Shown here: positions 2,574-58,723 of the stretch, piece after piece | Layout of the letters: each line of letters starts with the position of its first letter | Position numbering within the stretch: position 1 is the stretch's first letter | From: an uncultured bacterium | GTDB taxonomy: Bacteria > Patescibacteriota > Minisyncoccia > Phycocordibacterales > UBA11359 | Assembly (NCBI GenBank): GCA_903831815.1 | Contig: CAIKZC010000001.1 | Span: 85,037 to 149,036, forward strand | DNA: 64,000 nucleotides | Direction of reading: 5' to 3' | The notes under the pieces: generated by a model | Told to the model about the DNA's origin: nothing | The model's input: the letters and a program-made list of their open reading frames with translations, nothing else | Database searches by the model: none | Position numbers and translations under genes: made by a program

Positions 2574-2647
2574 CCACCCTTAGCTCAGTTGGTTAGAGCA
2601 TCGAGCTTATACCTCGAGGGTCCTAGGTTCGAGTCCTAGAGGGTGGA
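2574..2647 (+). tRNA. tRNA with anticodon TAT (reads AUA), putatively tRNA-Ile(UAU); no CCA encoded
   Basis: Manual cloverleaf fold. Acceptor CCACCCT/AGGGTGG has 7 perfect pairs. D arm GCTC-AGTTGGTTA-GAGC. Anticodon stem TCGAG/CTCGA with loop CTTATAC. V loop GGGTC. T arm CTAGG-TTCGAGT-CCTAG. Discriminator A. Confidence 0.7.
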
Positions 2648-2651
2648 CAAC

Positions 2652-5547: not shown

Positions 5548-5959
5548 GGGGATGATCGGCCTAGACAACTGATTCCCTTCTTGATGTGCGCTATAAGGGT
5601 CCTTGATACCTTCCAATCACCATGGAAATCTAAGTGCTAAAACCTTAGTTGCAAGCGCAAAGTCAACCTTATCTCCATATTTTGGAGCTAAAGACTTCGC
5701 GTTCGCCTACGTTTCTTAACCTAGGCGACGTCTCTCATCCTAATGTTTGGTCAGGATGAAGGGGTGTAATAAATCCAAACTGGAACTTGCGGTTTCTCGG
5801 CGCAAGTTTAAGAACAAGAGGATCGGCGGTGCATGATTTTGTTGGTTTAACCCATGCATTGCCTAAACGCCCACCTACCGGCGGGCACTAAAATCTTCTA
5901 CATAGCGTAGAAACATCAGAAGCATCTTTTGCACGGCGGTTCGATTCCGCCCATCTCCA
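5548..5959 (+). ncRNA. ssrA: Transfer-messenger RNA (tmRNA, ssrA)
   Basis: 5-prime GGGGATG pairs with 3-prime CATCTCC, including the G3-U alanine-identity pair. tRNA-like T arm GGCGG-TTCGATT-CCGCC, discriminator A, no CCA encoded. Length 412 nt, adjacent to smpB. Candidate tag frame ...AKDFAFAYVS ends at TAA 5717-5719 (tentative). Confidence 0.85.
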
Positions 5960-6139
5960 CAGACAAAATAAAAACTGCCCGCTAGGGTGGTTTTTATTTT
6001 GTCTGTAATTGATGATTGCCGGAATCGAAAGCCGGACCGAAGCTGCGATGTGAGCGAAGCGAACCGCAGCGAGGGAGGCGGGGTCGCGCAAAAATTGCGT
6101 AGCAATTTTATGTGTGACCGATGGAGCCTGCCTCCATCA
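5960..6139 (+). repeat. Element A copy 1: AT-rich 15-bp-stem hairpin (5960-6005) plus a 115-nt GC-rich conserved core (6021-6139)
   Basis: About 90% identical to 7345-7517. Several internal hairpins (GCTGCG...CGCAGC; CGCAA-aaa-TTGCG; GATGGAG-n5-CTCCATC). The core begins with GGAATCGAA, part of an inverted copy of the tmRNA T-loop/acceptor. Confidence 0.6.
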
Positions 6140-6214
6140 CTATAAAAGAAAGCGTCACAAAAGTACGCTTTCTTTCTTTTCGACTCATATACATAATTCG
6201 TATATAATAATCAT

Positions 6215-7204
6215 ATGAATATTGAATCAGCACCACAACCCGACAATCCCCAACAAGAAGAGAAAGTTGATCAAGAGAAGAAGTTCTATGAAGCATACCT
6301 AGACTATTTACAAAAATACAAAGCAGAAGCACTAGAAGCCCTCATTGAAATACATAAATATAATCCAAAATATATTTTTCTCACCGAAACCTCAAGCATA
6401 GGGTCTGGTTACGTGATGAAGTCTGGTCTAAAAGCTGCGTACCCAGATACCGAACAGCCAGAGTTTTACAGAGTTAACCCAAGGGATATATTAAAAGTAA
6501 TGTTAATCGGGCAAACCCGATTACTTGGGCAAAATATTGAAGGAATAAGAAAAATTCACCCAACACATATTCCTCGTATAAAGAAAGATGTTAATGATTA
6601 CTTGCGTAATGCTGGAGGATATGACGAGAAATTATTTGAATCAAAGCGACAGGAACTGGAAACATTTTTCAGAAGCAGAATTAAAGATACTTCGGCAAAA
6701 ATTCTTGTTTTCGACTCAGACTGGTCTACAGGGAAAAGTCCGGGAAGTATTGTTTCCCTATTAAAAAACCCTGAACATTACGGTTTTAGTGCTGATATAA
6801 AATGTGAAAACGTGAAAATGAACTTGCCCGAAGTGCCAACTGCACATTGGAATCGATTAAAAACAGCTGATCTTGTTTATGGCGGCAAAGTTCAGTTGGA
6901 TTTAAATCTGGGACCAGAAGATATAATCGGTATTCCGGCAGTTATAGCGCCGCTATCCGGCGTAAGTAATAATATTCCAATAACAGCAAAAAACAAAGAA
7001 TTTACAGGAGCTGGAACTAGAAACTTCAGGGCAAAAATTGCTAAGCTAACAACCGACAATATAAAACAAGTTCACTCTCCCGTTCGAGGGACAGTACCTC
7101 TAAATGCACCTCTAATCACTATTAACGCTCTGGAACAATTCGGCATAAAAATCGGAAATGAGATTAGACAAGATTTAGAAAAGGAACAACAAACAACCCC
7201 ATAA
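6215..7204 (+). CDS. Hypothetical protein (329 aa) flanked by the two copies of element A
   Basis: Long ORF with a TTCGAC-16-TATATAAT promoter-like sequence upstream. No recognisable motifs. Confidence 0.45.
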   Translation: MNIESAPQPDNPQQEEKVDQEKKFYEAYLDYLQKYKAEALEALIEIHKYNPKYIFLTETSSIGSGYVMKSGLKAAYPDTEQPEFYRVNPRDILKVMLIGQTRLLGQNIEGIRKIHPTHIPRIKKDVNDYLRNAGGYDEKLFESKRQELETFFRSRIKDTSAKILVFDSDWSTGKSPGSIVSLLKNPEHYGFSADIKCENVKMNLPEVPTAHWNRLKTADLVYGGKVQLDLNLGPEDIIGIPAVIAPLSGVSNNIPITAKNKEFTGAGTRNFRAKIAKLTTDNIKQVHSPVRGTVPLNAPLITINALEQFGIKIGNEIRQDLEKEQQTTP

Positions 7205-7344
7205 CAAGCTATTCAATTCCTTCTTGTGACTTCTATGATGAAATCTGCCTAAACAAAGTTTTTTAAACCCGAGCTCCACAATCGCCTCCGCCGCTTCAAA
7301 AACCCAAGAATGTAGTTGGTTCCAACTTTGATGCACTGTGTCCA

Positions 7345-7517
7345 CAGACAAATAAAAAACTGCCTCTTAGGTAGTTTTTTATTTGTCTGAAAAAGATGGG
7401 CGGAATCGAAAGCCGGACCGAAGCTGCGATGTGAGCGAAGCGAACCGCAGCGAGGGAGGCGGGGTCGCGCAAAAATTGCGTAGCAATTTTATGCGTGACC
7501 GATGGAGCCCATCTCCA
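7345..7517 (+). repeat. Element A copy 2 (hairpin 7345-7389; GC core 7402-7517)
   Basis: Direct repeat of 5960-6139. 7393-7409 (AGATGGGCGGAATCGAA) is a 17-nt exact reverse complement of the tmRNA 3-prime end (TTCGATTCCGCCCATCT). The copy ends GCCCATCTCCA. Confidence 0.6.
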
Positions 7518-7530
7518 TACAACGCATCCA

Positions 7531-7884: not shown

Positions 7885-7901
7885 ACGCAAACCCGCAGGA
7901 G

Positions 7902-7990
7902 AAGCCGCAAGCTTCCCTGCGGCTTTCTCCTTTCCAAATCACTCAAAACCCTCCAAATTGCGCGGTTCTTAAATCGTTCACTCAACTCCA
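7902..7990 (+). terminator. Terminator hairpin AAGCCGCAagcttcccTGCGGCTT plus a conserved 60-nt downstream module (copy 1 of 2)
   Basis: Near-identical to 8510-8598. Followed by a T-rich tract. Confidence 0.6.
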
Positions 7991-8102
7991 CAACTATTGA
8001 CGAATATTTATAATTATGCTATGATTTACATAGCATTATTTGGTTAACATCGTGTTGATCAAATAAAAAACAGTAAGTTCTATCAAAAAAGGAATCAGAT
8101 CA

Positions 8103-8477
8103 ATGACACAAGTTTATCGAGGAATCGGAAACTCCATCAGTTACCGAGCCGGACTCATGAACGAACTCGCAATGAAGATGGCTGAGCAGGACATCAGAGA
8201 CAAAGAGCTTCGAGGAGAACTTCTCAAACTCGCACCAGCGTTTTTGCACAAATGGCTCTCCGAAGATCTCGTTCTGACAAGCCTGTTCAAGTTTGGCCGG
8301 TATGACACGAAAATAGTCTTCGGCGATATGTACAACTTCAAGAATGTCGCCGACACGAGACAGAAAATCAAAATGCTCGCCGAAGCTTGGGATGGAGTGG
8401 TTCTTATACAGCTCGGCATACCGGATGGCACACCAAAGCCTCACAGGATTCCTATATGCCTCTCGGCAATCATGTAG
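8103..8477 (+). CDS. Hypothetical small protein (124 aa), cassette 2
   Basis: Promoter TTGACG(7997-8002)-17-TATGAT. RBS AAGGAA. Terminator module copy 2 downstream. Confidence 0.5.
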   Translation: MTQVYRGIGNSISYRAGLMNELAMKMAEQDIRDKELRGELLKLAPAFLHKWLSEDLVLTSLFKFGRYDTKIVFGDMYNFKNVADTRQKIKMLAEAWDGVVLIQLGIPDGTPKPHRIPICLSAIM

Positions 8478-8509
8478 GTCCGAGAATTACACGGCAACTA
8501 AGCCGCAGA

Positions 8510-8598
8510 GAAGCCGCAAGCTTCCCTGCGGCTTTTTCTTTTCCAAATCATTCAAGATCCTCCAAATTGTGCGGTTCTTAAATCGATCACTCATCTCC
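8510..8598 (+). terminator. Terminator hairpin plus conserved module (copy 2)
   Basis: AAGCCGCAagcttcccTGCGGCTTTTTC followed by ccaaatcattcaagatcctccaaattgtgcggttcttaaatcg. Confidence 0.6.
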
Positions 8599-8723
8599 AC
8601 CACAAAAATAAAATTTGACGTATCTAATCTATTATTGTAATGTCTATTTTGGATGACGACGTGTGTCGTCACGGTTCCATTTTACGGGTCATAGAGAACC
8701 CCATCCCGAAAGGATAAAATCTC

Positions 8724-9122
8724 ATGTTTCAGAAAGTAAATTTCTTCGTTGATAGTGCGCTTAAGAGAAGAATGTCTGCCAACACGGAAGATGGCCGCTG
8801 TCTCATGACAGAACCCGGAATTTGGGAGATTATGAGACTCATCCCAACACTGTTGGAATTGGGTTATGCCTGGAAACCCTACAATGGTCCACACGATCTA
8901 GGGGTACTTGAAGACCACGATAGCAAAGGGTTTTGCGAGTTCTGCGAGTACGTTAGGAATGCTCGACGTGTTGAAGCAACGATCAGGATGAACGGAAGCG
9001 GGGTAACATATTTCACCGAAGTGAGACTAATCCCCGACAAAAGGTCATCCTCGCAACACGGGTTACTAGCTTTCAGAACCTACCTCGTCGACGGCGCCAC
9101 AGAACTTATGGCTCTCGCATAA
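8724..9122 (+). CDS. Hypothetical small protein (132 aa, Cys-containing), cassette 3
   Basis: Promoter TTGACG(8615-8620)-17-TAATGT. RBS GAAAGGATAA. Terminator AAGCCGCatggttcacccaGCGGCTT at 9162-9195. Confidence 0.5.
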   Translation: MFQKVNFFVDSALKRRMSANTEDGRCLMTEPGIWEIMRLIPTLLELGYAWKPYNGPHDLGVLEDHDSKGFCEFCEYVRNARRVEATIRMNGSGVTYFTEVRLIPDKRSSSQHGLLAFRTYLVDGATELMALA

Positions 9123-9340
9123 CAGCGCCCAACAGACTCTGGTCTACACAGAAGTCAGATGAAGCCGCATGGTTCACCCAGCGGCTTCTTTTTTTAACAA
9201 AAATCAACGTATCTCGCGGCTTTTCCATTGCTTCATTTTTCAAAAAATTAATATTTGACGTCAATGTTGTTATGTGATACTATATTTTTGGCTCAACAGT
9301 TCCAAAACAACACAAACTCAAACAGAAGAAAGGCAAAGTT

Positions 9341-9676
9341 ATGAATAAAATCATCACTTGGGACAAGGTTCTCACACGGAACTTTGTCGGCGGATATGTT
9401 GAACTTGTGAATAAAGGGGTCCGATATTTCGGACCTATCAGCTCGATAATCGCTCATGAAGAAGAGATCAAGGTGTCGGTTTTGTGGCTAGCTCAAAGCG
9501 ACAAAACCATTTGGCGCAAGGTCGTCGACAGTCAGGTAATCACTTTTACGCGTGCCAATCAACCACAAGATATCGGAAGGAATCAAGTACATATCCCGAT
9601 TTCGGTCAAGGCTCAATACACCTTTCACCCAAAAGGCGGCGTACGTTTTGCCTCTTTAAGGGTCGAGGGAGTGTGA
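9341..9676 (+). CDS. Hypothetical small protein (111 aa), cassette 4
   Basis: Promoter TTGACG(9255-9260)-17-TACTAT. RBS AGAAAGG. Terminator at 9709-9741 is identical to the cassette 3 terminator. Confidence 0.5.
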   Translation: MNKIITWDKVLTRNFVGGYVELVNKGVRYFGPISSIIAHEEEIKVSVLWLAQSDKTIWRKVVDSQVITFTRANQPQDIGRNQVHIPISVKAQYTFHPKGGVRFASLRVEGV

Positions 9677-9871
9677 CTTGGATTCAACCCTCTCATGAAG
9701 CACAAGTTAGCCGCATGGTTCACCCAGCGGCTTCTTTTTTTGCCCAAAACCACACCACGAAATCACCGCTTGACAATATAAGTAGTATCTGATAGGATAT
9801 AGGAACAAAGAAGGGTTCGTGTCGAGACACATATTTGTATAATAGTTAAGTAAATAAAATCAAAAAACAAA

Positions 9872-12857: not shown

Positions 12858-12966
12858 GATCACCTCCCAATGTTCATTCTGCTTTATCCGGCAGTTACGG
12901 TTTTAGCACAAGCTAATCTGGGCAATATTATACACTTTATTGGTATTTATGTCAATGTATTTAAAA

Positions 12967-13079
12967 AGCAAGTAAAAAGAGCAGTTTTGAGGGACTAACG
13001 GAGGCCGACGGGCCGAGTTGGAAGGAAATTTCCAGCAGGAAATTTACCTGTGCCCTCAAAACTGCTCTTTTTACTTGCT
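12967..13079. repeat. Element C copy 1: 27-bp perfect-stem hairpin with a 59-nt loop containing GGAAATTTCC motifs; terminator for the MBL gene
   Basis: AGCAAGTAAAAAGAGCAGTTTTGAGGG...CCCTCAAAACTGCTCTTTTTACTTGCT. The 37-nt loop core gagggcacaggtaaatttcctgctggaaatttccttc is shared, inverted, with 58148-58253. Confidence 0.55.
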
Positions 13080-13086
13080 TCTTTTC

Positions 13087-20538: not shown

Positions 20539-20802
20539 TTATTTTCTTTTCAATTTATACACTTTCAAAACTTCATCGACAGCCTTTACGGTGTCCCCTC
20601 TTTTGATTTGCTCAACGACACAATGCGAAAGATGCCCTTCCATGAGCATATCCTCAACATTGGAAAGCCCTTGTTTAGCCGCCGAACTTTGAGTAATAAC
20701 ATCGATGCAATACGAGCCGTTTTCGATCATCTCCCGCAAACCCCGCACCTGTCCTTCAATAATTTTTAATCTTTGCACTATCTTTTGGTTTTTCATATTC
20801 AT
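20539..20802 (-). CDS. csoR: CsoR/RcnR-family copper-sensing transcriptional repressor
   Basis: 87 aa. ...GQVRGLREMIENGSYCIDVITQ...H...C signature. Overlaps the copA start by 4 nt. Confidence 0.85.
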   Translation of the reverse strand: MNMKNQKIVQRLKIIEGQVRGLREMIENGSYCIDVITQSSAAKQGLSNVEDMLMEGHLSHCVVEQIKRGDTVKAVDEVLKVYKLKRK

Positions 20803-20840
20803 GCACTATAGTGTATACCCCCTAGGGGGTACTGTCAACA
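20803..20840 (-). promoter_or_regulatory. csoR-copA promoter with a CsoR-type operator TACCCCCTAGGGGGTA (20816-20831) in the spacer
   Basis: Minus-strand TTGACA-gtaccccctagggggta-TACACT, then 7 nt to the ATG. The GC-tract palindrome is the canonical CsoR operator type. Confidence 0.65.
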
Positions 20841-20845
20841 GAAAT

Positions 20846-20955
20846 AAAAAAGCAAAAGGCACTTGCAGGGTGCCTTGCGCAGCGCGACTGGCGCGAGCAG
20901 AGCGGACGGCCAGCAGGCCGGAACGCGTGCATCCCCAAAGTGCCTTTTGCTTTTT
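20846..20955 (+). repeat. Element B copy 1: GC-rich about 75-nt conserved core closed by a 17-bp stem
   Basis: Closing stem AAAAAGCAAAAGGCACT...AGTGCCTTTTGCTTTTT. Core ttgcagggtgccttgcgcagcGCGCgactgGCGCgagcagagcggacGGCCagcaGGCCggaacgcgtgcatcc. Confidence 0.65.
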
Positions 20956-20965
20956 TATTCCCTTT

Positions 20966-25149: not shown

Positions 25150-25262
25150 GAAAGCGCTGCCAAGAGCACCCTTTACAGGGTACGCGTAATTTTCTGCTGA
25201 AAATTCGCTCCGACTCGGCGCCAGTCGCGCCTCGTAGCCCCTGTAAAGGGCGCTCTTGTCCG
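25150..25262 (-). repeat. Element B copy 4, inverted orientation and diverged
   Basis: Closing stem GAGCACCCTTTACAGGG...CCCTGTAAAGGGCGCTC. Reverse complement carries GGCGCgactgGCGCC and ATTTTCagcaGAAAAT hairpins with the same loops (gactg, agca) as copies 1-3 but different stems, and ACGCGT is shared. Confidence 0.55.
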
Positions 25263-25297
25263 CTCAATCAATAGACCTTAAAATCCAGGTAAAAGAA

Positions 25298-25335
25298 AAG
25301 CCCGGGCGGTGTGGGACACCGCCCGGGCGACTATT
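25298..25335 (-). terminator. Intrinsic terminator of dapB
   Basis: GCCCGGGCGGTGTgggaCACCGCCCGGGC followed by a T-run on the minus strand. Confidence 0.6.
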
Positions 25336-25361
25336 TCACGACTTCAAACACTGACCGGTAA

Positions 25362-26222
25362 TCAGCCCGCCTTGAGGACATCGAGCATATCGAAGGCTTG
25401 ACCACGGATACCAAGCTCGATCTTCTTGGACAAGAACCTCAATGCTTTTAGCGCACCTGCAACATAAGGAGCGCGCCCATTGATGTTGTGGAACAAGCCA
25501 ACTCTCACACTTCCATCAGGCGCGCAGAGAGTATACTCGTGCCAACCGTGACCGCCAAGATATTCCGGCGGAACGCCCAGCAAATGTTGCTGTACGACTG
25601 GATCACGAATCATCCCGATATCTTCCACTGTGAACGGAGCTCCAAGACGAGCAAAAGAATCCATAAAGGAAATGGCTGTACCACTCGGATCTTTTTTGCC
25701 TTTCTGATGGCTTTCAACCACGGCCGCCTCGAAACCGGCAAAAACGCCGGGAAACATCTTGGCCGCCATCTGAAAAGTCGCGTGAAGTGCCACGACCTCG
25801 GCTGCCATATTAGGAGCAATGACAGCACAGGTCCGCGAACACTCAACTGCCCGTCGCAACTGAATTCGATCTCCTCCAGTCGTCCCCATGATGAATGGGA
25901 TCCAGTTTTCACAGAAGAACTCTACGTTGCCGTTGACCGCGTCTGGCTGGGAAAAATCGGCGACCACAACCGTACTTTTTTGTTCCGTCCGCATATAACT
26001 AATATCGGCTAGTGCAAGTTTCCGGTTTTCGGGGCGCACCAAGGAAATGCCAGACGCCGCGTCTTGATCTTCGGTTATCTCCGGACCAGTGAAGGCGAAA
26101 TTCGCCAATTCAAAATCATCCGGACACCGAAGAATCGCTTCGCGAAGCAAACGAGACATCTTGCCGGGAAAACCGCTGAGGATAACCACCGTCGGCTTCT
26201 TGGTCGTACTCGTACCACTCAT
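25362..26222 (-). CDS. dapB: 4-hydroxy-tetrahydrodipicolinate reductase (start at MSGTST preferred; the ORF extends to 26273)
   Basis: VVILSGFPGKMSR (NAD(P) binding); ESHQKGKKDPSGTA (DapB E-HH-K-D-PSGTA signature); GTTG. GC about 55%, against about 38% for the flanks. Confidence 0.8.
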   Translation of the reverse strand: MSGTSTTKKPTVVILSGFPGKMSRLLREAILRCPDDFELANFAFTGPEITEDQDAASGISLVRPENRKLALADISYMRTEQKSTVVVADFSQPDAVNGNVEFFCENWIPFIMGTTGGDRIQLRRAVECSRTCAVIAPNMAAEVVALHATFQMAAKMFPGVFAGFEAAVVESHQKGKKDPSGTAISFMDSFARLGAPFTVEDIGMIRDPVVQQHLLGVPPEYLGGHGWHEYTLCAPDGSVRVGLFHNINGRAPYVAGALKALRFLSKKIELGIRGQAFDMLDVLKAG

Positions 26223-26372
26223 ATCGCACCTCTTCCTGTAAAAGTTCTGTGAAAGGACATTGAAACTAAACAATTTCTAGCAGAGAAATGCGACGAAGTC
26301 AATACTCGTCGTTTTGTATAAAAAAAGAAAGGACCCTTGCGCTTCGCGCAAGGGTCCATGAAATCTCTGCTA

Positions 26373-27665
26373 TCAAGTCTGCAACATCTCATGGCTAGCT
26401 TCACGAAGCGTTCGCCACAAGTCTTCCGTCGTTTCGGCCCGACGGATCTGTTCGACCATACCATCCTCATGACGCAGAAGCTCCTGCGGAGCGGTGCGTC
26501 CATTGTAATTGGACCTCATCGCAATACTATGTGCTCCGGCTTCATGAACGACGATAATGTCACCAAGCTCGATGAATGGCAGAAGTCGCCGAGTGGCAAA
26601 CCGATCGGTGTTTTCACACGCTGGTCCAACAACATTCACTCGGTACAGCTGACCTCCCTTCACTCTTCCGGATGGATCCAAAACATCAATATGATGATAC
26701 GCACCATAAATGAATGGTCGTGGAATCGAAGCCATCGGACAGGCGTCGACGCCGATATGCGTCTCATAAGTATCCTTGCGATTGATGACCTTGGTCACCA
26801 AGGCGCCGTGAGGACCGGCCATGAATCGCCCGTTCTCCATAAATAAAGACGGGGCCCATCCATGAGCAGTATTGAAATCCATCAGAAGTCGTCTGGTTGC
26901 CGACGTCAATCTCTGGGTATCGAGCGGCTGCTGACTGGGTCTGTAATTCACTCCCCAACCACCACCGACGTTTATGTACCTGCAGCGCTTACCAGTAGCC
27001 TTCTCCAACACTTCGCAACGCTCAAGAAGCATCTTGGTTGTCGCGGCGTGGTATCGCCAGTTGCGCTGATTGGAGCAAATCATCGAGTGGATGCCGGAAG
27101 TTGTGGCACCCGCATTGAACGCTCTCTTGTATGCCGGAACGAATTGCTTGTCAGTCACACCATATTTGGCTTCCTGAGGTTTGCCAATAATGGAGGTACC
27201 TTTTCGTGCCCGACCGGGGTTGAAGCGGAAACAGATGTGGTCGGGGAAATTTTTCCCCATGGACTTACAAATACGCTTTACGGGTTCGACCATGGAAATA
27301 TCATCCAGATTCAGAATGACACCCATGTCGAGTGCTGTCTTAAATTCCTCGGTCGAGGTGTTGTTGGAAGTGAACATAACATCACAACCGGTTGCACCAA
27401 CGGAAGCTGCAAGCTGCAACTCGTGAACAGAACTGCAGTCAAAGCCGAAACCCATACTCCGCATTACTTTCATAATCGAATCGTTGGGCAAAGCCTTGAC
27501 AGCAAAGAATTCCTTGAAGTTAAAGCCCTCAAAGGCTGTATTCAGACAGAGACCGGTTGATTTGATTCCCGCCTCATCATAGATGAAAGCCGGTGAACCA
27601 AACTTGGCGATGATTGTCGGAACATGCGGATAAAGACGACGCTTGAATGACTGCGACAGTGGCAT
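26373..27665 (-). CDS. lysA: Fold-type III PLP-dependent decarboxylase, probable diaminopimelate decarboxylase (ORF extends to 27710)
   Basis: FAVKALPN (PLP-Lys region); ...GPACENTDRF... Flanked by GC-rich terminators (GGACCCTTGCGCttcgCGCAAGGGTCC at 26328-26356). Confidence 0.6.
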   Translation of the reverse strand: MPLSQSFKRRLYPHVPTIIAKFGSPAFIYDEAGIKSTGLCLNTAFEGFNFKEFFAVKALPNDSIMKVMRSMGFGFDCSSVHELQLAASVGATGCDVMFTSNNTSTEEFKTALDMGVILNLDDISMVEPVKRICKSMGKNFPDHICFRFNPGRARKGTSIIGKPQEAKYGVTDKQFVPAYKRAFNAGATTSGIHSMICSNQRNWRYHAATTKMLLERCEVLEKATGKRCRYINVGGGWGVNYRPSQQPLDTQRLTSATRRLLMDFNTAHGWAPSLFMENGRFMAGPHGALVTKVINRKDTYETHIGVDACPMASIPRPFIYGAYHHIDVLDPSGRVKGGQLYRVNVVGPACENTDRFATRRLLPFIELGDIIVVHEAGAHSIAMRSNYNGRTAPQELLRHEDGMVEQIRRAETTEDLWRTLREASHEMLQT

Positions 27666-27857
27666 GAATGCCTCCTTATGATTCTCTGAAAAAGACCTTT
27701 GACAGAACATCTGCCAATTTAATCTGTCCGAATACTACATTTTGAATTAAGGTGTGTCAATAAATAAAAATGCAAAGAAAAACCCGCCGTTTCCTCGGAG
27801 GAAACGGCGGGACTATTCATGAAAGAACCGATCACAAAACGAACGTAGGCCCAGCGA

Positions 27858-29072
27858 TTAGTACGCGACGCTGGCCTTATCGAACGCCTCAGCGATCCCG
27901 TTCGCGTTCGCGAGCACATCGTTAACGACGGCATAGCGAATATATGGATTGAACGGCACACCAAGCACACCAGTGTTCTCAAGCATAAGCCGATTGAAGT
28001 GCTCGGCATCTGTAATCACCTGGCCGAACGCCATCTTCGGCGTCTGCCAGAGAGTGAAGAAACCAGCCTGCGGGGTGACCGCGAGCTTCATTCCTCGCGG
28101 ACGCAAGATGCTGATCAAGGCACGGATGCGCTGATGATACAGCACCTGGGTCGCCTTGACCTCATCCATCCCATTTTCGAGTTGCTCGAGAATACCGATG
28201 GCGGCGAACGCGGCGAACCCGCTGTCTGCATCACCCTTGATGCGGGCGATGTCGTCAATGAAATCCGCGCTACCCACCATGGCACCAATTCGCCAACCAG
28301 TGAAGTTGCCGGCCTTGGAGGCCGAGAATGCTTCCGCCCAGGAAAGACCTGGGAATTGGCATGCGATTTGAGCAAGAGTCGGGTGACCAGATTCGTGAGT
28401 CACCAATGTGTAGGCCGCATCATTGACAAGCCTGATATCACGCTGTTGGCAATAACCGCACACGTGCCTGACCCAATCCTCATCCATCGCCCTCCCCGAA
28501 GGGTTGTGTGGAAAATTCATCATGACCAGACAGCGACCAACCTCCCGCTCCGTCGTGATTTGATCGAGCGTAAAAAGGAAACCGTTGTCTGGGCTCAACT
28601 TCAGAGCAACATGAGAAATATCGGAACCATACACCTCAGACCAATACGCCGGGGTAGGATAGCCGGGGTCGGTGCATGTGAACACTGTGAGATAAGGTGT
28701 GTCACGCGCCACCGCCCCACACGCGAGCGGAATGAGACCGAGCATCGGCTTGATGCCCGGAATCGGCAAATACCCCAAACCCTCAACATCGTCGAGGCAG
28801 TCGCCAACGTGGCAACGCACAAAACGCTTCGCGAAATCAGGAATCGGCAAACAGCCGTTGTCCTGGTATTCATGCATGTTCTGATCGCGCGACATCACCG
28901 CTTTCGCCGTGGCCTTGCAGGCCAGTTCGAGAGCCGGGCCACTTGGCTGACCGATCGAGAGATTGATGACCTTGACACCTTTCTCTTCGGCCGCTCTCCT
29001 TATGGCCTTGTTACGTTGAAACACGTTGCCCGGCGCAGCCGGCAACCACGATGTGAGAGTTGACTTCGCCAC
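27858..29072 (-). CDS. Class I/II aminotransferase, probable LL-diaminopimelate aminotransferase (DapL-like)
   Basis: PLP-Lys motif SASKAGNFTGWRIG; N-terminal NLSIGQP; adjacent to dapB and lysA. Terminator CCCGCCGTTTCCtcggAGGAAACGGCGGG at 27783-27812. Confidence 0.55.
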   Translation of the reverse strand: MAKSTLTSWLPAAPGNVFQRNKAIRRAAEEKGVKVINLSIGQPSGPALELACKATAKAVMSRDQNMHEYQDNGCLPIPDFAKRFVRCHVGDCLDDVEGLGYLPIPGIKPMLGLIPLACGAVARDTPYLTVFTCTDPGYPTPAYWSEVYGSDISHVALKLSPDNGFLFTLDQITTEREVGRCLVMMNFPHNPSGRAMDEDWVRHVCGYCQQRDIRLVNDAAYTLVTHESGHPTLAQIACQFPGLSWAEAFSASKAGNFTGWRIGAMVGSADFIDDIARIKGDADSGFAAFAAIGILEQLENGMDEVKATQVLYHQRIRALISILRPRGMKLAVTPQAGFFTLWQTPKMAFGQVITDAEHFNRLMLENTGVLGVPFNPYIRYAVVNDVLANANGIAEAFDKASVAY

Positions 29073-29199
29073 TGTGAGATCTCCTTAATTTGCAACGAAC
29101 CTTAACAGAGAAAAAGCCCTGTCAGCTTTATGGACAAAGTGTCCTACTTCCGGTTCAGAAACTAACATTTTAAGTGCAATGAGTCAATGTCTAACAAAA

Positions 29200-36390: not shown

Positions 36391-37038
36391 CTATTCATGA
36401 AATCCAATTTTTTCTTTTTTCGGTTCTTCCGGTTCCTCCAGTACCGGTTTCTTCAGCCGTTCTAATGATTCCACGGATTCCGCCAGTTTCTCTATAACAC
36501 CAAACACGATTTGAAAATTTTCGCCATATTTTTTCTCCAAATCATCCAGGCGATGAGCGAGTTCGCTATTCAGAGACAAAATCTGGCGCAATTTCACAAA
36601 AGTTTTAATGATGGCAATGCTCATGGCCACTGCCCGCGGGCTATTAAGCACCGTAGCGGCCATAAGCGCACCGTGTTCGGTAAAGGCGTAGGGTAAGAAA
36701 CGACGTTTGCTAAAATTTGCGGTTCCAAATTGGAACCGCAAATTTTGACCCTTTTTCAAGGTCGCAATTTGCGACCTTGAAACCTGATCTTCGTTCAAGG
36801 TTCCAATTTGGAACCTTGAACGAAGATACTCTGCTTCACTTTTTGTAAGCTGAAACATAAATTCTGCAGGAAAACGATCAATATTACGTTGTACCGCCTT
36901 ATTTAAATTCTTTGTCTTTACTCCATACAAACTCGCCAAATCACTGTCCAAAATCACCTTTTGATTACGAATAATTAAAATTATCTGCTCCACCCTCTCC
37001 TCCGGCGCAAGACCCACGCCATTGATATTTTTGTTCAT
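36391..37038 (-). CDS. ORF6N-domain (KilA-N-like) protein, paralog 1, with an in-frame roughly 120-nt palindromic expansion
   Basis: ...IRNQKVILDSDLASLYGVKTKNLNKAVQRNIDRFPAEFMFQLT...RFLPYAFTEHGALMAA... is the ORF6N signature. It carries an extra segment QIGTLNEDQVSRSQIATLKKGQNLRFQFGTANFSK relative to paralog 2 (55468-55974). Confidence 0.75.
   Translation of the reverse strand: MNKNINGVGLAPEERVEQIILIIRNQKVILDSDLASLYGVKTKNLNKAVQRNIDRFPAEFMFQLTKSEAEYLRSRFQIGTLNEDQVSRSQIATLKKGQNLRFQFGTANFSKRRFLPYAFTEHGALMAATVLNSPRAVAMSIAIIKTFVKLRQILSLNSELAHRLDDLEKKYGENFQIVFGVIEKLAESVESLERLKKPVLEEPEEPKKEKIGFHE
36710..36827. repeat. Three consecutive long palindromes (35, 29 and 41 nt) inside the ORF6N paralog-1 CDS
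   Basis: aaaatttgcGGTTCCaaattGGAACCgcaaatttt; tttcaaGGTCGCAAtttGCGACCttgaaa; atcttcgttcaaGGTTCCAAtttGGAACCttgaacgaagat. Confidence 0.8.
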
Positions 37039-37405: not shown

Positions 37406-38029
37406 TTAAACACTGAGTATTTCAAACCTCTCACCCTCGACAAAAACGGCTTGGTCGTCGTTTAGGAAAATGAGCGGAGTTTTGTTTTCCGCGAGGTGCT
37501 CCATAACTTTCTTATTATCCGCTACAATATCGGGATTATTGGTATGCGGCAAGATCATGAAGTTGACCAATCCCAAAGCTCTATAATCGGATATCAAGTT
37601 GAGGTATTCCGTTTCCCCACCATCGTACTGCGCCAAGGTCACATCTTTTGCCGCTATCATGGAACCCGCGCTCGTGCCGGTGTATATAATTTCACCCTTC
37701 CGCACAGCGTCAACCACCACCCCTGCGAGACCGCTCTTCTGCAACACCGACAAAAGAAGCAACACACTGCCCCCGCAAAAATGAATAACCTCTGACCTCC
37801 CCAAAAGCTCCCTCATCTCCTCTTTTGTCGTCTTCCTCAAATCAACATCAACAATTTCACAACCCAAAGACGTAAACGCTTCCCTGTCGCTCCGCACCCA
37901 CCACGGCTCTTCAACCTCATCCGCCGCGTTCCTAATAAACATCACCTGGCAGCCCTTCCCCACCTTCGGTGCTTTCATCGCGAGAATCGAAATCGTATTT
38001 TGCAAACTTGAGGCGAGGAAGAGGGTCAT
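37406..38029 (-). CDS. Peptidase S51 family (dipeptidase E-like)
   Basis: GTSAGS nucleophile motif; IHFCGG; 207 aa. Confidence 0.7.
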   Translation of the reverse strand: MTLFLASSLQNTISILAMKAPKVGKGCQVMFIRNAADEVEEPWWVRSDREAFTSLGCEIVDVDLRKTTKEEMRELLGRSEVIHFCGGSVLLLLSVLQKSGLAGVVVDAVRKGEIIYTGTSAGSMIAAKDVTLAQYDGGETEYLNLISDYRALGLVNFMILPHTNNPDIVADNKKVMEHLAENKTPLIFLNDDQAVFVEGERFEILSV

Positions 38030-38034
38030 GGTTA

Positions 38035-38574
38035 TTATTTTATACCTCCAAAATTATACTTCCATCCCGGCTGCCATTTGAAGTGAGTCGATGTTAATTG
38101 CTCAAGCGTTACACCATTGATTAAATTTTCCAAACCAAACTGTGTTGCTCTATGACCGATTATCATAACTCGCTTGCCATCATAATTTTTAAACAAGTCT
38201 TCTAAAAAAGATTTCATTCGTACAGTTGTTTGAGTATAACTTTCACCATTAGGAAAAGGCGTTGAAATTCTTTGTGGTTTTTCCTTATCAACAATCTCGC
38301 TGGGTTTTTGAGTAAAATCACCATAGTTACATTCTCGTAACCGAGCGTCTTTTACAATCGGCCATTTATTACCAAAACCAATTTCTGCACTATTGTATGC
38401 ACGTTGAAGATCAGAGCAAAAGATTGCATCAAAATGATCATTTTTATATCGCTCTCCCATTTCTTTTGATTGTTGAATACCTAAAGGAGACAAAGCCACG
38501 TCATTGTGTCCGGACGCTAAATGAGCTTCGTTATCAAATGTAGTTCCGTGTGCTTCAAATATTATTTCAATCAT
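38035..38574 (-). CDS. Histidine phosphatase family protein (phosphoglycerate-mutase-like)
   Basis: N-terminal EAHGTT catalytic His motif, a variant of RHG; 179 aa. Confidence 0.65.
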   Translation of the reverse strand: MIEIIFEAHGTTFDNEAHLASGHNDVALSPLGIQQSKEMGERYKNDHFDAIFCSDLQRAYNSAEIGFGNKWPIVKDARLRECNYGDFTQKPSEIVDKEKPQRISTPFPNGESYTQTTVRMKSFLEDLFKNYDGKRVMIIGHRATQFGLENLINGVTLEQLTSTHFKWQPGWKYNFGGIK

Positions 38575-38668
38575 AAAATTATTCTAATATTTTTGATTTA
38601 TCACCAACTGTAATTGTACCAAAAAGAAAGGCCGGCGGAAAACTAATCTTTACTTTTTTAATATTATA

Positions 38669-39883
38669 TTGTATTTTAGTAAGATGTTATTCGAAGAACT
38701 GATAAAAAAACATCTGGCCGGAATAGATCTCGACCTTAGAAAAAAACCTGATGGATATTCTCGTTACATGGATCAAAAGGTCACACCGGATGTTTTAACT
38801 TTTATCGCCGACTGCATTGTAAATTTTTTAGGCGGAAAAAAATCTGACACAATTTTCACAACTAAAGATATTTGGGATTTTCAATATTTCCAGAAAAACA
38901 TCGTTGCTATATTTGGTAAACCATCTCCTACAAACGAAAGTGCAAATGCAGAATACGATAAGTTTATTGCTCAACCACTTAAAACTTTAGCATTTGCAAA
39001 GATATTGGAAGAAAAGAAAGTGGGGGTACGAAATACATACCAAGTCATTCAGCCAGAATTGTTGGAGTACATTTCACAAAACGAACGAAATGCTTGGGTA
39101 TTCCTTGTTGTGTATGTTGAAAAAGTTCTAACTGATAGCGGTTTTATTAAAGAGTTAAATTCTTTTAAGACTAAGTCACTTTCTGGAACGGTGACTCAAG
39201 AAGATTTTGAACTCCTCAAAGCAAAATTTGAATCTTTCATGCTTGGATATACAAACATAACAACTGATGTTGAAATTAGACGTATTTTTCCTAAAGTCTT
39301 AAATCCTTACGCAGCTTACAACATGATTAACGGCTCAGAAGATGGGCATATGACAGAAAGTAGATTCGTTTATTCTGACTTAATGTATAACCGATCAAAT
39401 TTTCGAGATTTAGGAAAAGACAAAGCCCTGACAAGAAGTGAGGCTGAAGAAATTTTTATTGGTAAACCAGAATTTTCTGATTACAGAACACAAAAAGCAA
39501 AAAATATTGTAAGAAGAAATCATTCAACCAGCGAGATTCGTGACAAATTGGCTGTCGGAGATGCTACTCAGGTTCACCACATATTCCCCGAACATCAGTT
39601 TCCTAAAATCTCGGCTTTTGTTGAAAATTTAATCCTGTTAACACCACAACAACACAACACAAGAGCTCATCCGAATAACCACACTCAATCTATTGATCGA
39701 GATTATCAACGTGAGTGTATTTTGTCTAAAATTACTTCAATTGAATCTTCAATCAGACAAGGGAAAGACATTTATTCAAAAGAGTCGTTGATCCATGTTC
39801 TAAACACAGGGCTCTCGTTGGACATGTCAACAAACACAACATTCAACGAATTAAGGGAAGTTGTAAAAAAAACGTACGCTTAA
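38669..39883 (+). CDS. Putative HNH-motif (beta-beta-alpha-Me) nuclease, candidate restriction endonuclease
   Basis: C-terminal ...VHHIFPEHQFPKISAFVENLILLTPQQHNTRAH (H-H...N...H). Convergent and overlapping with the MTase stop. AT-rich island. Confidence 0.45.
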   Translation: MYFSKMLFEELIKKHLAGIDLDLRKKPDGYSRYMDQKVTPDVLTFIADCIVNFLGGKKSDTIFTTKDIWDFQYFQKNIVAIFGKPSPTNESANAEYDKFIAQPLKTLAFAKILEEKKVGVRNTYQVIQPELLEYISQNERNAWVFLVVYVEKVLTDSGFIKELNSFKTKSLSGTVTQEDFELLKAKFESFMLGYTNITTDVEIRRIFPKVLNPYAAYNMINGSEDGHMTESRFVYSDLMYNRSNFRDLGKDKALTRSEAEEIFIGKPEFSDYRTQKAKNIVRRNHSTSEIRDKLAVGDATQVHHIFPEHQFPKISAFVENLILLTPQQHNTRAHPNNHTQSIDRDYQRECILSKITSIESSIRQGKDIYSKESLIHVLNTGLSLDMSTNTTFNELREVVKKTYA

Positions 39884-42405: not shown

Positions 42406-42557
42406 CCCTTACATTATAACTTTTATAAGTTTTTCTGGGAAGGGCTATTTTCAATATTAACTAATGATAAGGTCTTTTGGAAAAATATTTTTTAATCAAC
42501 ATGGCTAAAGAAATATTTATACAATCAACAACATTTTTTATTTTCTTTGTAAATTCA

Positions 42558-43244: not shown

Positions 43245-43270
43245 GCAATACTATATTTGAACTATTTTAA

Positions 43271-43780: not shown

Positions 43781-43864
43781 GTGTTTTAAATTATTTTAAC
43801 TCTACTACTTTTACAGTGAACTACAAGTATCTAATGGGATATGATTTTGATTTTACACAAGCGC

Positions 43865-43966
43865 GAAAGACCGTGCCTTGCAGGGTGCCTCGCACAGGCC
43901 GACTGGGCCGAGCGGAGCGGACGGCCAGCAGGCCGGAACGCGTGCATCCCTAAAGGCATGGTCTGT
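43865..43966 (+). repeat. Element B copy 2
   Basis: Closing stem AGACCGTGCC...GGCATGGTCT. The core has GGCCgactgGGCC where copy 1 has GCGCgactgGCGC, a compensatory change. Followed by the terminator AAAAAACCACCtttcGGTGG at 43986-44012. Confidence 0.65.
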
Positions 43967-44011
43967 AGCGCTTTTGTGACAACAAAAAACCACCTTTCGG
44001 TGGCTCTTTGT

Positions 44012-44863
44012 TTACTTCCCACTCTTTGCCTTCCCCACTCTCCTTCTCGTCACAATCAAATGATTTGAATATCTCTTTGCTCGTCGTGACTTCTGTCCCT
44101 TGCCCGTTGGCTTGCCGTAAACAGACTTTGCGCGTCGAGTTCCTCGTCCCTGTCGTCCTTCACCTCCTCCGTATGGATGGTCAACTGGGTTTTGAGCAGT
44201 ACCTCGAACGGTTGGGCGAATACCTAACCATCGACTTCGTCCTGCTTTACCAATATTGATCAATCGGTTTTCCTCGTTGGAAACAACACCGATAGTTGCG
44301 AAACAGGTATCGATAACTCGTCGTACTTCAGTTGAAGGCAACTTTAGGTGCACATATCCGGCATCGTGAGCAATAACTTCAACGAAGTTACCGGCAGACT
44401 TTGCAAGTCGTGCGCCACCATTAGCATTTACTTCAACGTTGTAAACGAAAGTACCGACTGGAATGTTCTTGAGCATCATTGAATTTCCAACTTTGATCTC
44501 GGCTTTTGGCGAAACAATGAACTCACTGCCAACTTTCATACCTTGTGGAAGTACAACGTATCGTTTCTCGCCATCTTTGTATTGAGCGAGAGCGATGAAG
44601 GCTGTACGGTTTGGATCGTATTCAACAGTCATGAGAGTGGCAGGAATATCTCGTTTGTTATATGTAAAATCAACTTCTCGATAGAGTCGTTTGTGTCCTG
44701 ATCCCTTATGACGTGTGGTGATAATACCTCGGTTGTTGCGTCCTACAGCACGTTTGAAGCCATGAGTAAGTGATTTCTCAGGGTCGTTCGTAGTCACGAT
44801 CTTGTTAAATTCGATCGTGGTCATCGCTCGTCGAGGGATACTGGTTGGTTTATATGATTTCAT
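44012..44863 (-). CDS. rplB: 50S ribosomal protein L2
   Basis: ...GRNNRGIITTRHKGSGHKRLYR... Confidence 0.9.
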   Translation of the reverse strand: MKSYKPTSIPRRAMTTIEFNKIVTTNDPEKSLTHGFKRAVGRNNRGIITTRHKGSGHKRLYREVDFTYNKRDIPATLMTVEYDPNRTAFIALAQYKDGEKRYVVLPQGMKVGSEFIVSPKAEIKVGNSMMLKNIPVGTFVYNVEVNANGGARLAKSAGNFVEVIAHDAGYVHLKLPSTEVRRVIDTCFATIGVVSNEENRLINIGKAGRSRWLGIRPTVRGTAQNPVDHPYGGGEGRQGRGTRRAKSVYGKPTGKGQKSRRAKRYSNHLIVTRRRVGKAKSGK

Positions 44864-53285: not shown

Positions 53286-53297
53286 GAGTAAAAGACT

Positions 53298-55974: not shown

Positions 55975-56048
55975 CCCAAAACCGTAGCATTTTGGAGATA
56001 AAATATTTATAAAATCTATTTGATATTTTTTATATTTTATTTAATGCG

Positions 56049-56149
56049 GAAGACTATGCCTTGAAGGGTGCCTTGCGCAGCGCGACTGGCGCGAGCGGAG
56101 CGGACGGCCAGTAGGCCGGAACGCGTGCATCCCAAAAGACATAGTCTGC
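56049..56149 (+). repeat. Element B copy 3
   Basis: Closing stem AGACTATGCC...GACATAGTCT. Core near-identical to copy 1, with GGCCagtaGGCC. Followed by terminator AAAAAACCACCgagcGGTGGTTTTTT at 56165-56200. A TTGATA-17-AATGCG promoter-like sequence sits upstream at about 56009-56040. Confidence 0.65.
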
Positions 56150-56221
56150 AGCATTTACATACAAAACAAAAAACCACCGAGCGGTGGTTTTTTGTTTTGT
56201 ATTTATGTTTTTGCTTTCAGA

Positions 56222-58128: not shown

Positions 58129-58147
58129 AAGAAAAAGCACTCGCATA

Positions 58148-58253
58148 GCAGTAAAAAGATGCCTCGAGGGCACAGGTAAATTTCCTGCTGGAAATTTCCT
58201 TCACACTCGCGCCGTCGCGCTCCGTGAGTTCCTCTCGGTCACCTTTTTACTGC
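58148..58253. repeat. Element C copy 2: hairpin GCAGTAAAAAG...CTTTTTACTGC with a loop carrying GGTAAATTTCCTGCTGGAAATTTCC; bidirectional terminator between rpmB and the NUDIX gene
   Basis: Loop core is the reverse complement of the copy-1 core at 13021-13060. Stems differ but both contain GTAAAAAG. Confidence 0.55.
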
Positions 58254-58723
58254 TATAAAACACCTATACTCTGTTTAATAATTTGAGAACCGTCTTGATT
58301 GAAGGTAAATGTGGCTTTTAGTTTTTCGCCTTTTATAACTTTCGGCAACCAGTGTACGTCGTTGATCCACATATTTTTAAATGGTAATTCTGAGTATGAA
58401 TACCACTGCGGTTTCATTTCTTCGCTTTCAGTTGGTTCGCCTTGCCACTTCTCGGTAAAGAAAATATGAACCTGCTGATCAAACTCTTTTTTATTTTCAA
58501 AAAAGAAATCTATAGTGGCGACATTTTGTAAATCTTCCTCATTTATTTTTACAGAAATCTCCTCGCCAGTTTCGCGAATCGCCGCTTGCTGTATCGTTTC
58601 GTCATCGTGCAACTTACCACCGACGCCATTCCATTTACCTATACCAAAGCCTCGCTTCTTCATAGCGAGTAAAATTTTCTGTTCCGTCGGTTTATTAAGA
58701 AAAACGAGAGTGCATTGTCGCAT
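58253..58723 (-). CDS. NUDIX hydrolase
   Basis: Nudix box GGKLHDDETIQQAAIRETGEEISV (Gx5Ex7REUxEExGU). Confidence 0.8.
   Translation of the reverse strand: MRQCTLVFLNKPTEQKILLAMKKRGFGIGKWNGVGGKLHDDETIQQAAIRETGEEISVKINEEDLQNVATIDFFFENKKEFDQQVHIFFTEKWQGEPTESEEMKPQWYSYSELPFKNMWINDVHWLPKVIKGEKLKATFTFNQDGSQIIKQSIGVL

Follow-up and report, generated by a model that had tools for sequence, protein, structure and literature searches.

Hairpin repeats of CPR bacteria with a conserved three-way-junction core and covarying, terminator-like outer stems

The 64,000-nucleotide stretch of DNA analysed here (the window) corresponds to the str-S10-spc region of a CPR genome, with all of the ribosomal-protein genes encoded by the minus strand and with accessory islands in between. 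An initial annotation noticed in it a segment, element B, whose copies share a core closed by stems that differ in sequence and remain complementary, and proposed that it represents a structured RNA or a recombination hairpin. The locus thus raises the question of what kind of object keeps such a fold and in which molecule, RNA or DNA, the fold matters. The evidence presented below identifies element B as one copy of a hairpin repeat family of CPR bacteria, ~110-150 bases long, which behaves more like a DNA repeat of the REP/RPE type than like an RNA gene.

Probe and pattern searches located the four copies of element B where the initial annotation had placed them. A 36-nt core probe matched three of them with at most three mismatches and had no match in 100 dinucleotide shuffles of the window, and a looser spaced core pattern found all four and nothing in dinucleotide shuffles. 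These copies share one architecture, in which a copy-specific outer stem leads to an inner helix (GGGTGC/GCATCC) and then to a three-way-junction cap; their folding z-scores range from -3.4 to -8.5 and none of 200 shuffles folded equally well. The complementarity reported for the outer stems was confirmed at 20846, 43867 and 56051 as well as in the inverted copy, where the arm at 25162 pairs with that at 25238, and the internal hairpins have the composition described for them, hairpin 1 with GCGC, GGCC or GGCGC around GACTG and hairpin 2 with GGCC or ATTTTC around AGCA or AGTA. The size of the element had been underestimated, its real extent in the window being ~110-120 nt. In B1 the outer arms AAAAAGCAAAAGGCACT and AGTGCCTTTTGCTTTTT are complementary and the helix reaches 20843-20873/20929-20959, and B2, B3 and B4 possess an extra outer helix past a 3x3 purine loop. 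Read from the outside in, B2 consists of an outermost helix AGCGC/GCGCT, a 3x3 loop GAA/GTA and the stem AGACCGTGCC/GGCATGGTCT, and B3 of an outermost helix AATGC/GCATT, a loop GGA/GCA and the stem AGACTATGCC, complementary to GACATAGTCT. Hairpin 2 of B4 is the AT-rich AATTTTC-AGCA-GAAAATT, the form that is typical of the family in other genomes.

The number of copies had been underestimated as well. With a covariance model, six were found in the 64 kb (~1 per 10 kb), including a pair designated 'element A' (Table 1). Of this pair, A1 has a 31-bp outer stem, a hairpin 1 of the form GGCC-GACG-GGCC and a hairpin 2 of the form AAATTTCC-AGCA-GGAAATTT. As A1 and A2 were absent from the training set of the model, which nevertheless recovers both, elements A and B constitute a single family.

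Table 1. Repeat copies, parts of copy B1 and adjoining plain terminators in the window (terminators are listed as context only and are not part of the element).
Feature	Position	Strand	Location or sequence	Folding	Model match
A1 ('element A')	12963..13083	+	just past the stop (13087) of a beta-CASP RNase J-like gene		12980-13067, 58.6 bits, E 1.3e-14
B1	20843..20959	+	between the secY stop (20966) and the csoR promoter	MFE -66.1, z -8.2	68.7 bits, E 1.5e-17
B1 outer stem	20843-20863 / 20939-20959
B1 core three-way junction	20868-20935
B1 hairpin 1	20882-20894		GCGC-GACTG-GCGC
B1 hairpin 2	20907-20920		CGGCC-AGCA-GGCCG
B4	25154..25265	- (inverted)	flanked by the high-GC dapB/lysA island and the S8 portion of the ribosomal operon	z -8.5	68.2 bits, E 2.1e-17
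B2	43860..43972	+	downstream of rplB (stop 44012) and its plain terminator		67.6 bits, E 3.2e-17
Plain hairpin terminator	43981..44013	.	between the rplB stop and B2
B3	56043..56155	+	downstream of rpsG (stop 56222) and its plain terminator		62.9 bits, E 7.4e-16
Plain bidirectional terminator	56159..56202	.	between the rpsG stop and B3
A2 ('element A')	58146..58256	-	just past the NUDIX gene stop (58253)		58157-58243, 45.5 bits, E 8.5e-11

Outside the window, a genome scan with the spaced core pattern, restricted to one genome per species, returned 37 loci, 30 of which belong to metagenome-assembled genomes of Patescibacteria/CPR labelled Paceibacterota, Nomurabacteria, Parcubacteria or Saccharibacteria; the seven pattern matches from other organisms were attributed to chance, none of them having a match to the covariance model. 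This model, built from 32 copies with the structure checked by hand, detected 38 copies in the 30 CPR loci, and a metagenome scan based on the G+C-rich subtype of the window provided four more (a lone match on a viral contig had no model match and was taken as chance). The covariance-model scan suggested in the initial annotation therefore recovered the family in the window and in CPR loci, and its known extent comprises at least 30 Patescibacteria/CPR genome loci and four metagenome contigs. When the whole window was compared with Rfam 15, only a tmRNA and a tRNA exceeded the gathering score, and at permissive thresholds B1 and the typical copy of L033 gave chance matches only, with E above 3. 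Hammerhead, twister and other ribozymes, retron ncRNAs and domain V of group II introns, as well as SRP, 6S and Y RNAs and the K-turn, were rejected by eye on the grounds of junction layout, copy number or absence of an Rfam match. No description of the element was found in the literature searched on CPR repeats or RNA motifs. The general kind is already known, namely structured palindromic repeats that lie downstream of genes, enter ORFs and retain their hairpins. What is not known from Rfam or from this literature is the layout, which combines a three-way-junction tip under deep conservation with free, terminator-like stems that covary, with conserved G.A steps and with orthologs in flipped orientation.

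The consensus fold begins with an outermost helix of 3-10 bp that varies from copy to copy, followed inwards by a 3x3 internal loop with G-N-A over G-N-A, replaced by Watson-Crick pairs in some copies, and by the variable stem of 15-18 bp. Under this stem there is either a tandem G.A step (UUGA/GAAA) or a run of plain pairs (UUUU/AAAA), and then the inner helix, GCCGUC/GACGGC in the consensus. Arm 1 of the junction comprises UUUC/GAAG, an internal loop GCA/GA, a 4-bp stem and the loop GACUG (GAC(T)G in the family), and arm 2, which comes after a GA linker, contains GCG plus a 6-7-bp A/U stem, the loop AGCA and a bulged A. The unpaired nucleotides of the loops and of the junction are conserved.

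That selection acts on this fold and not on the primary sequence had been proposed from the window copies, and it was sustained by the larger sample, in which the covariation survives both shuffling and the sliding of pairing partners. In the alignment of 32 copies 86.2% of the cells pair, compared with 69.7% in column shuffles and 42-50% when partners were slid by 1-3 columns, and the covariation score of 0.443 compares with 0.162 after shuffling and 0.10-0.15 after sliding. For the 38 model-aligned copies, an alignment that was fitted to the model and therefore leans towards structure, 91.7% of the cells pair vs 69.2% in shuffles (slid controls over both alignments, 42-61%), with a covariation score of 0.593 vs 0.176 shuffled and at most 0.151 slid and with changes on both sides in 29 of 34 pairs. 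Here hairpin 1 is 99.3% paired, with covariation in all four of its pairs, and hairpin 2 is 100% paired. The same helices were obtained by RNAalifold on an independent MAFFT alignment. Orthologous copies, identified by their syntenic flanking genes, permitted the outer stems, which are almost all Watson-Crick with few G.U pairs, to be compared position by position. Among the cleanly alignable pairs double compensatory changes predominate, with 36 of them alongside nine single changes to a wobble pair and seven changes that break a pair. The B1 ortholog found after secY on the metagenome contig L045 (80% identity over 1.4 kb) illustrates the point, since its stem differs from that of B1 at several positions (by eye) and both are still perfect palindromes. 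The SecY protein of the window itself had no identical entry on record. The unity of the family and the covariation of its conserved fold are thus direct observations.

The two strands of the element are not equivalent. With RNA energy parameters, 30 of 35 copies give a more stable fold for the sense strand than for the antisense strand, the mean difference being 5.3 kcal/mol. Mismatches at model pairs are of the type G.A/A.G in 59 cases vs four of the type C.T/T.C, and G.U pairs outnumber A.C by 39 to 11. Moreover, the tandem G.A step swaps with Watson-Crick pairs at the identical two positions, an alternation that makes sense only if this strand folds. The stabilising G.A and G.U features are confined to one strand and the conserved object is therefore a single strand, RNA or ssDNA, so that neither a symmetric cruciform nor a duplex binding site describes it. 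Concerning the proposal of a structured RNA, the fold and its covariation stand, but the step from covariation to RNA does not, as REPIN DNA hairpins display the same behaviour (PMC3116915).

Comparison of orthologous sites evidenced that the unit is gained, lost and inverted as a whole. Upstream of rpsL, the loci L006 and L010 carry copies with homologous outer stems (GGAARCCGGGTGCYRTTTT) in opposite orientation relative to rpsL, and the inverted segment takes in the stem-base loops and motif, beyond the tip, which rules out a flip of the core alone by recombination between the stem arms. Inversion of the whole element was also found between L001 and L033 and, after prfA, between L031 and L037. 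The ftsZ-trxB spacer holds zero, one and two copies in L027, L025 and L004, respectively (ftsZ ~80% identical); in L027 a plain terminator, CCAAAAACACCCC-CTGAGTGA-GGGTGTTTTTG, is found instead, and the site after prfA in L007 contains neither the element nor a hairpin. The copies are old, being syntenic across genomes whose flanking genes are 65-80% identical. No near-identical dispersed copies were found except for the pair that flanks prfA in L031, and with this exception there is no sign of recent transposition. Filled and empty sites showed no consistent target duplication, the ends differ between copies without conserved terminal inverted repeats, and the foot of the stem bears no conserved tag. 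Of the two original proposals, the recombination hairpin comes closer in view of these gains, losses and inversions, although neither a recombinase nor the logic of a cassette system was found.

Copies also occur in frame within genes encoding an M1 aminopeptidase (L017) and an Lnt-like protein (L008). Eighteen close homologs of the aminopeptidase (70-81% identity) divide at one site, eight reading PITFK-KN-KVNFGE and the remaining ten carrying an insert of 40-60 residues, in differing reading frames. At the DNA level this site is empty in L039, occupied in sense orientation in L017 (78.5 bits) and L041 (50.8 bits) and in antisense orientation in L040 (24.8 bits, E 2.4e-5), and the L017 insert is the entire unit, including the stem-base motif (GGCGAAG...CGAAGCG). 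The notion of stem arms derived from the target by copying was unsupported at the aminopeptidase site; a suggestive case is provided by L031, in which the outermost 3' arm equals the flank of the empty site of L007. In the orthologous in-ORF copies L017, L046 and L047, the third codon positions of identical amino acids have an identity of 0.77-0.88 inside the element and of 0.49-0.51 over the remainder of the gene, and the outer stem has been rebuilt by compensatory changes at the cost of amino-acid changes. Hence, a nucleotide-level constraint on the fold operates within a translated region, in either orientation, which is hard to square with a function in mRNA and fits an element that acts at the level of DNA.

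Altogether, we are inclined, with confidence that is about evenly balanced, to regard the family as an ancient palindromic DNA element of the REP/REPIN/RPE kind, the folded single strand of which would be recognised by a putative enzyme and which would double as a terminator or a stabiliser of mRNA 3' ends. Besides the fold and its strand asymmetry, this reading draws on the gains, losses and inversions of the unit, the adjacent inverted and tandem doublets, the mixed orientation relative to genes and the constraint on in-ORF copies, with REPINs and RPEs as precedents, and for the terminator role on the polarity of the outer stems and the position just past stop codons, often between cistrons of housekeeping operons (details below). 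What the enzyme recognises would be the sense strand in its folded, single-stranded state, most likely ssDNA at the replication fork or an extruded hairpin; the enzyme would be structure-specific, with a HUH enzyme of the RAYT/IS200 type as the obvious candidate. Such recognition, acting along with either hairpin-templated correction or selection for pairing, could keep the core and the stems intact, and the outer stem, transcribed either way, may act as a terminator or 3' end stabiliser, a role that would explain the persistence of copies at conserved positions. Several observations count against this reading. Conserved ends, target duplication and a foot tag are absent from the sites compared, so the family fits no known mobilisation scheme, signs of recent transposition are lacking apart from the L031 pair, and its long-lived syntenic positions look more like a host function than like selfish spread. 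The asymmetry of the purine mismatches would suit RNA equally well. The ssDNA-at-fork form would predict a bias with respect to replication, such as the coupling of orientation to replication direction in IS200/IS605-derived 'peel and paste' elements, and none is seen when orientation is compared with local GC skew (23 to 21), a measure that over 8 kb is a noisy and weak proxy for replication direction. Finally, no RAYT, IS200, Y1 or other transposase, and no other partner enzyme, is found among the annotated neighbours in the window and the 8-kb loci; nor was a common neighbouring partner protein found, the small ORFs beside B2 and the L003 copy being unrelated and the other neighbours housekeeping genes.

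The REP, BIME and REPIN sequences of Enterobacteria and Pseudomonas, which are associated with RAYT, resemble the CPR family in being extragenic hairpins of high copy number that are found past stop codons and between cistrons, in both orientations and as inverted or tandem doublets; in the CPR, adjacent doublets were found at L004, L009, L020, L024, L026 and L030. In REPINs, too, the hairpin is maintained by compensatory changes, which are common, and movement through a single-stranded intermediate has been proposed (PMC3116915). Roles in termination and mRNA 3' protection have been proposed for these repeats in the literature, and REPINs are reported to persist vertically over long times. 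They differ in layout, since in REPINs the stems, formed by REPs of 20-40 nt with a GTAG or CGTC tag, are conserved and the spacer or tip is variable, whereas in the CPR family the tip is a conserved three-way junction, the stems vary and CGTC occurs only inside the inner helix GCCGTC. They also differ in that REPINs are accompanied by a cognate single-copy RAYT gene in the same genome and none is linked to the CPR family among the annotated neighbours in the window and the 8-kb loci, and in the host, which here is CPR.

Rickettsia palindromic elements (RPEs) are likewise palindromic repeats of ~100-150 bp in a reduced genome, located between genes and also inserted in frame within protein-coding genes, where they give rise to peptide inserts (PMC10969869). 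The copies in the M1 aminopeptidase and Lnt-like genes correspond to this behaviour; the clade is unrelated and the likeness is one of described behaviour. RPEs are not known to have a core with a conserved three-way junction, orthologs in flipped orientation or a stem that resembles a terminator. Repeats with conserved folds also include bcr1 of B. cereus and ERIC. SPRITE and other terminator-like MITEs of S. pneumoniae are intergenic repeats with a structure that either imitates a rho-independent terminator or gives a stable RNA fold (PMC10969869). SPRITE, ERIC and bcr1 are defined by conserved ends or by their full-length sequence, in contrast to the CPR family, which is defined by a conserved centre with free stems. 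Nor does the family resemble classical MITEs driven by DDE transposases, as it has no conserved terminal inverted repeats and no target-site duplication of fixed length.

A related and more tentative proposal, which we consider doubtful, is that the T-shaped junction is the cis-site of a new, CPR-specific machinery, either an ssDNA nick-and-copy enzyme or a dedicated protein for operon punctuation that would read the junction in RNA or in DNA. In the first form, an enzyme that nicks and copies the hairpin could produce flip/flop inversion, slow copy-and-paste and a conserved tip with free stems. The terminal hairpin of parvoviruses (ITR) is a T-shaped structure of ~110-145 nt in which a long stem is capped by two small arms and which undergoes flip/flop inversion. 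The CPR element shares the long stem with two small arms, and its orthologous copies in two orientations recall flip/flop; on the other hand, it lies inside the chromosome instead of at the ends of a DNA molecule, no gene for a Rep/HUH protein was found, and the inversion involves the whole unit, including the stem-base loops, and not the tip alone.

It also seems unlikely that the family is a functional structured RNA, that is, either a multicopy small RNA or a module that acts in cis from a 3'-UTR or an intercistronic spacer, with a core that would bind a conserved CPR protein (for example in operon punctuation, processing or stabilisation) and a variable stem that would only close the fold. 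The strong covariation in every helix and the conserved unpaired nucleotides of loops and junction speak for such an RNA, as do the strand-specific G.A and G.U features, typical of RNA motifs, the greater stability of the sense fold calculated with RNA energy parameters, and the conservation of positions and core sequence over long evolutionary distances. Copies are furthermore found at intercistronic spots of classical operons, among them the transcribed spacers of the highly expressed rpsB-tsf, secE-nusG, rpsP-khpA and adk-map and also ftsZ-trxB. The element starts 10-30 nt past stop codons, including those of adk, ftsZ, recA, rpsB, parB, prfA, rnc, secY, rpsG and rplB, and in the window copies follow the RNase J, secY, rplB, rpsG and NUDIX genes, one more being situated between the lysine-biosynthesis island and S8. 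Orientation, in turn, is difficult to reconcile with an RNA. With respect to the abutting gene, ~13 copies are sense and 10 antisense, so that about half are antisense to the preceding gene, and many are antisense to both neighbours; in the window, four copies out of six run antisense to the surrounding genes. A sigma-70 scan of the sense strand upstream of B2 and B3 found no promoter-like site, and the upstream flanks of 35 aligned copies contain no common motif. This context, together with the in-ORF copies that keep their fold, argues against a conventional RNA gene or cis-RNA. The in-ORF copies do so in both orientations and under nucleotide-level constraint, orthologous copies are flipped, G.U pairs are scarce in the outer stems, which are Watson-Crick almost throughout, and no Rfam family matches.

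The outer stems, described in the initial annotation as completely different from each other, vary indeed in sequence but are not arbitrary, having an A-rich 5' arm and a T-rich 3' arm. A run of at least four A in the 5' arm and one of at least four T in the 3' arm were counted in 29 of 49 copies, with the reverse polarity in one, and the 5' arms contain in total 447 A vs 206 T. This layout of an A-tract, a G+C-rich stem and a T-tract is that of a bidirectional intrinsic terminator and reads identically on both strands. The T-tract behind a G+C-rich stem and the location directly past a gene agree with an intrinsic terminator; the short apical loop of such a terminator is not present, the 'loop' being here a structured core of 65-75 nt. 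Plain terminators of like style (AAAAC, C-run, G-run, GTTTT) occur after rpsG in L006 and L010 and at the ftsZ site of L027.

These features can be accommodated by an immobile host terminator module, in which intrinsic CPR terminators had their loop elaborated into a protein-binding junction and are inherited vertically under host selection, presence and absence reflecting core loss and ordinary terminator turnover. In agreement with it are the 29 to 1 polarity, the location directly past stop codons, the syntenic positions across genomes, the plain terminators of similar style after rpsG, and the stem CAAAAACACCCC at the ftsZ site of L027, which resembles outer stems elsewhere (AAAACACCCC in L033, L031 and L007) and could be a core-deleted copy. 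We nonetheless judge it quite improbable, considering that copies reside within the aminopeptidase and Lnt-like ORFs, where termination would be harmful, that many others lie between normally co-transcribed cistrons, and that B2 and B3 stand beside a plain terminator of their own, so they are not needed for termination. In addition, the core is strand-specific yet random in orientation to transcription, and insertions of the whole unit bring their own outer stem (L020 vs L034, L004 vs L025). Termination is thus not the whole story, given the separate plain terminators that adjoin B2 and B3 and the copies within ORFs and operons, and termination by the element is probably leaky.

The surroundings of the window copies bring to mind a folded recombination site, attC-like or Xer-like, marking points of integration of accessory DNA. 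Five of the six window copies are located where conserved operon genes meet accessory DNA: B3 after rpsG is followed by ORF6N and a DGR, B2 after rplB by a low-GC restriction-modification island, and B1 after secY by csoR-copA, and B4 borders the high-GC island for lysine biosynthesis. The homology that L045 shares with the window begins exactly at the outer edge of B1, and in L003 compared with L016 an ORF of 520 bp is inserted between recA and the element. Like the bottom strands of integron attC sites, the element folds as a single strand whose mismatches are specific to that strand, and it further shares with attC a dependence on structure over sequence and a location at the 3' end of genes. 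The layout, as the initial annotation aptly stated, is the opposite: in attC the base (R''/R' boxes) is conserved, the tip is variable and orientation is uniform, whereas here the stem base is variable and without R-box-like sequence, the centre is conserved and orientation is mixed. Since, besides, annotation of the window genes revealed no integrase, neither an integrase nor a recombinase was found adjoining the copies, no cassette arrays are present, most copies elsewhere lie between ordinary housekeeping genes without an island, and L010 has ~4.7 kb between rpsG and fusA with no element there, this explanation is very improbable.

Returning to the ancient DNA repeat that we favour, the family is of interest in that CPR/Patescibacteria genomes are very small and streamlined, and still about one copy per 10 kb is kept in the window. 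Its core is better conserved than the surrounding ribosomal-protein genes, which indicates that something reads the structure. In-frame copies enlarge and alter proteins, and flipped or absent copies mark the plasticity of these genomes. Covariation does not single out RNA in this case, a useful caution for pipelines aimed at the discovery of structured RNAs, and the covariance model offers a seed for the annotation of CPR genomes. A partner enzyme, if found, could become a new structure-guided DNA or RNA tool. If a machinery acting on the T-shaped junction were to exist, in either form, the family would represent a new class of element and not another REP, and in its ssDNA form a new scheme of mobilisation.

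The rpsG/fusA interval is occupied by a cassette that looks like a diversity-generating retroelement (51713-55142). On both sides of its reverse transcriptase gene lies a 137-nt inverted repeat whose arms (51713-51849 and 53311-53447) are 79% complementary, and the 3' end of the 614-aa ORF contains one of these arms, an arrangement that fits a TR/VR pair. The stretch 5548-7520 looks like a small island with the tmRNA gene as its integration point. The 3' end of the tmRNA gene and the terminator are duplicated downstream (5956-5999 vs 7341-7384), and beyond this duplicate a second repeat was found (6014-6137 vs 7395-7518, 95% identical); both repeat pairs enclose a 329-aa ORF. Two modules with hairpin terminators are also repeated, 7899-7994 as 8508-8603 and 9163-9206 as 9709-9752, each pair being 91% identical, which suggests a tandem duplication of small genes within 7899-9752. 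The anticodon of the tRNA-Ile gene is unusual in bacteria.

Features annotated in the window
Feature	Coordinates	Strand	Remarks
tRNA-Ile gene	2574-2648		anticodon TAT
tmRNA gene	5548-5962
329-aa ORF	6215-7204		no Pfam match
csoR-like repressor gene	20539-20802	-
ORF6N-domain gene, first	36391-37038
Reverse transcriptase gene	52176-53285	+	RVT_1, E 2e-25
614-aa ORF	53298-55142	-	no Pfam match
ORF6N-domain gene, second	55468-55974

The ribosomal-protein superoperon is interrupted by two islands (25300-29100 and 38000-44000), both of which are foreign in composition, with a G+C content of 51-57% in one and 30-35% in the other vs a window mean of ~43%. Genes for an aminotransferase, a DAP decarboxylase-like protein and a DapB-like protein are present in the G+C-rich island, and in the G+C-poor one a fused C5/N6 DNA methylase gene (39880-42405) occurs alongside a 404-aa ORF that lacks annotation. 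The csoR-like repressor gene is followed by a putative copA-type ATPase gene and a DsbD/HMA gene, and immediately upstream of it lies the palindrome TATACCCCCTAGGGGGTA (20812-20835), which resembles a CsoR operator and is a candidate for this role.

The two ORF6N genes have in common a 151-nt stretch that is 85% identical (36850-37000 vs 55810-55960). Within the reading frame of the first gene there is a 47+47-nt palindrome (36721-36815), and the Pfam match of this gene spans 111 residues vs an 86-position profile; the palindrome may be another in-frame palindromic insert, of a family other than that of the element. In the homologs of the M1 aminopeptidase, the family that hosts in-frame copies of the element (alignment A6, P0001-P0090), several further short lineage-specific inserts were observed outside the element site. 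These are R/G/S/P-rich and 7-19 residues long (for example PRHGGAS, RSREGSQRPS and TPTTSSFRHSPSGRGRS). They may be what is left of further small palindromic insertions with a high G+C content.

Regarding the element itself, the core consensus of the inner helix and junction is GCCGTCT(TTC), as at 2390-2400 in locus L033. Of its bases, 7 also occur in GCCGTCTGAA, the DNA uptake sequence of Neisseria, a likeness that is probably coincidental. Compared with L016, locus L003 contains ~520 bp extra (1342-1863), placed precisely after the recA stop and before the element, and this insertion encodes a 174-aa ORF without a Pfam match. Divergent subtypes are represented by L040 (1820-1902) and by second copies in L009, L024 and L030; in one such subtype hairpin 2, an arm of the core junction, is CUCCCAAAGCUUUGGGAG. 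The second copies after recA reach only 44-58 bits. Given these divergent subtypes and low-scoring copies, the element family is therefore wider than the strict scan pattern.
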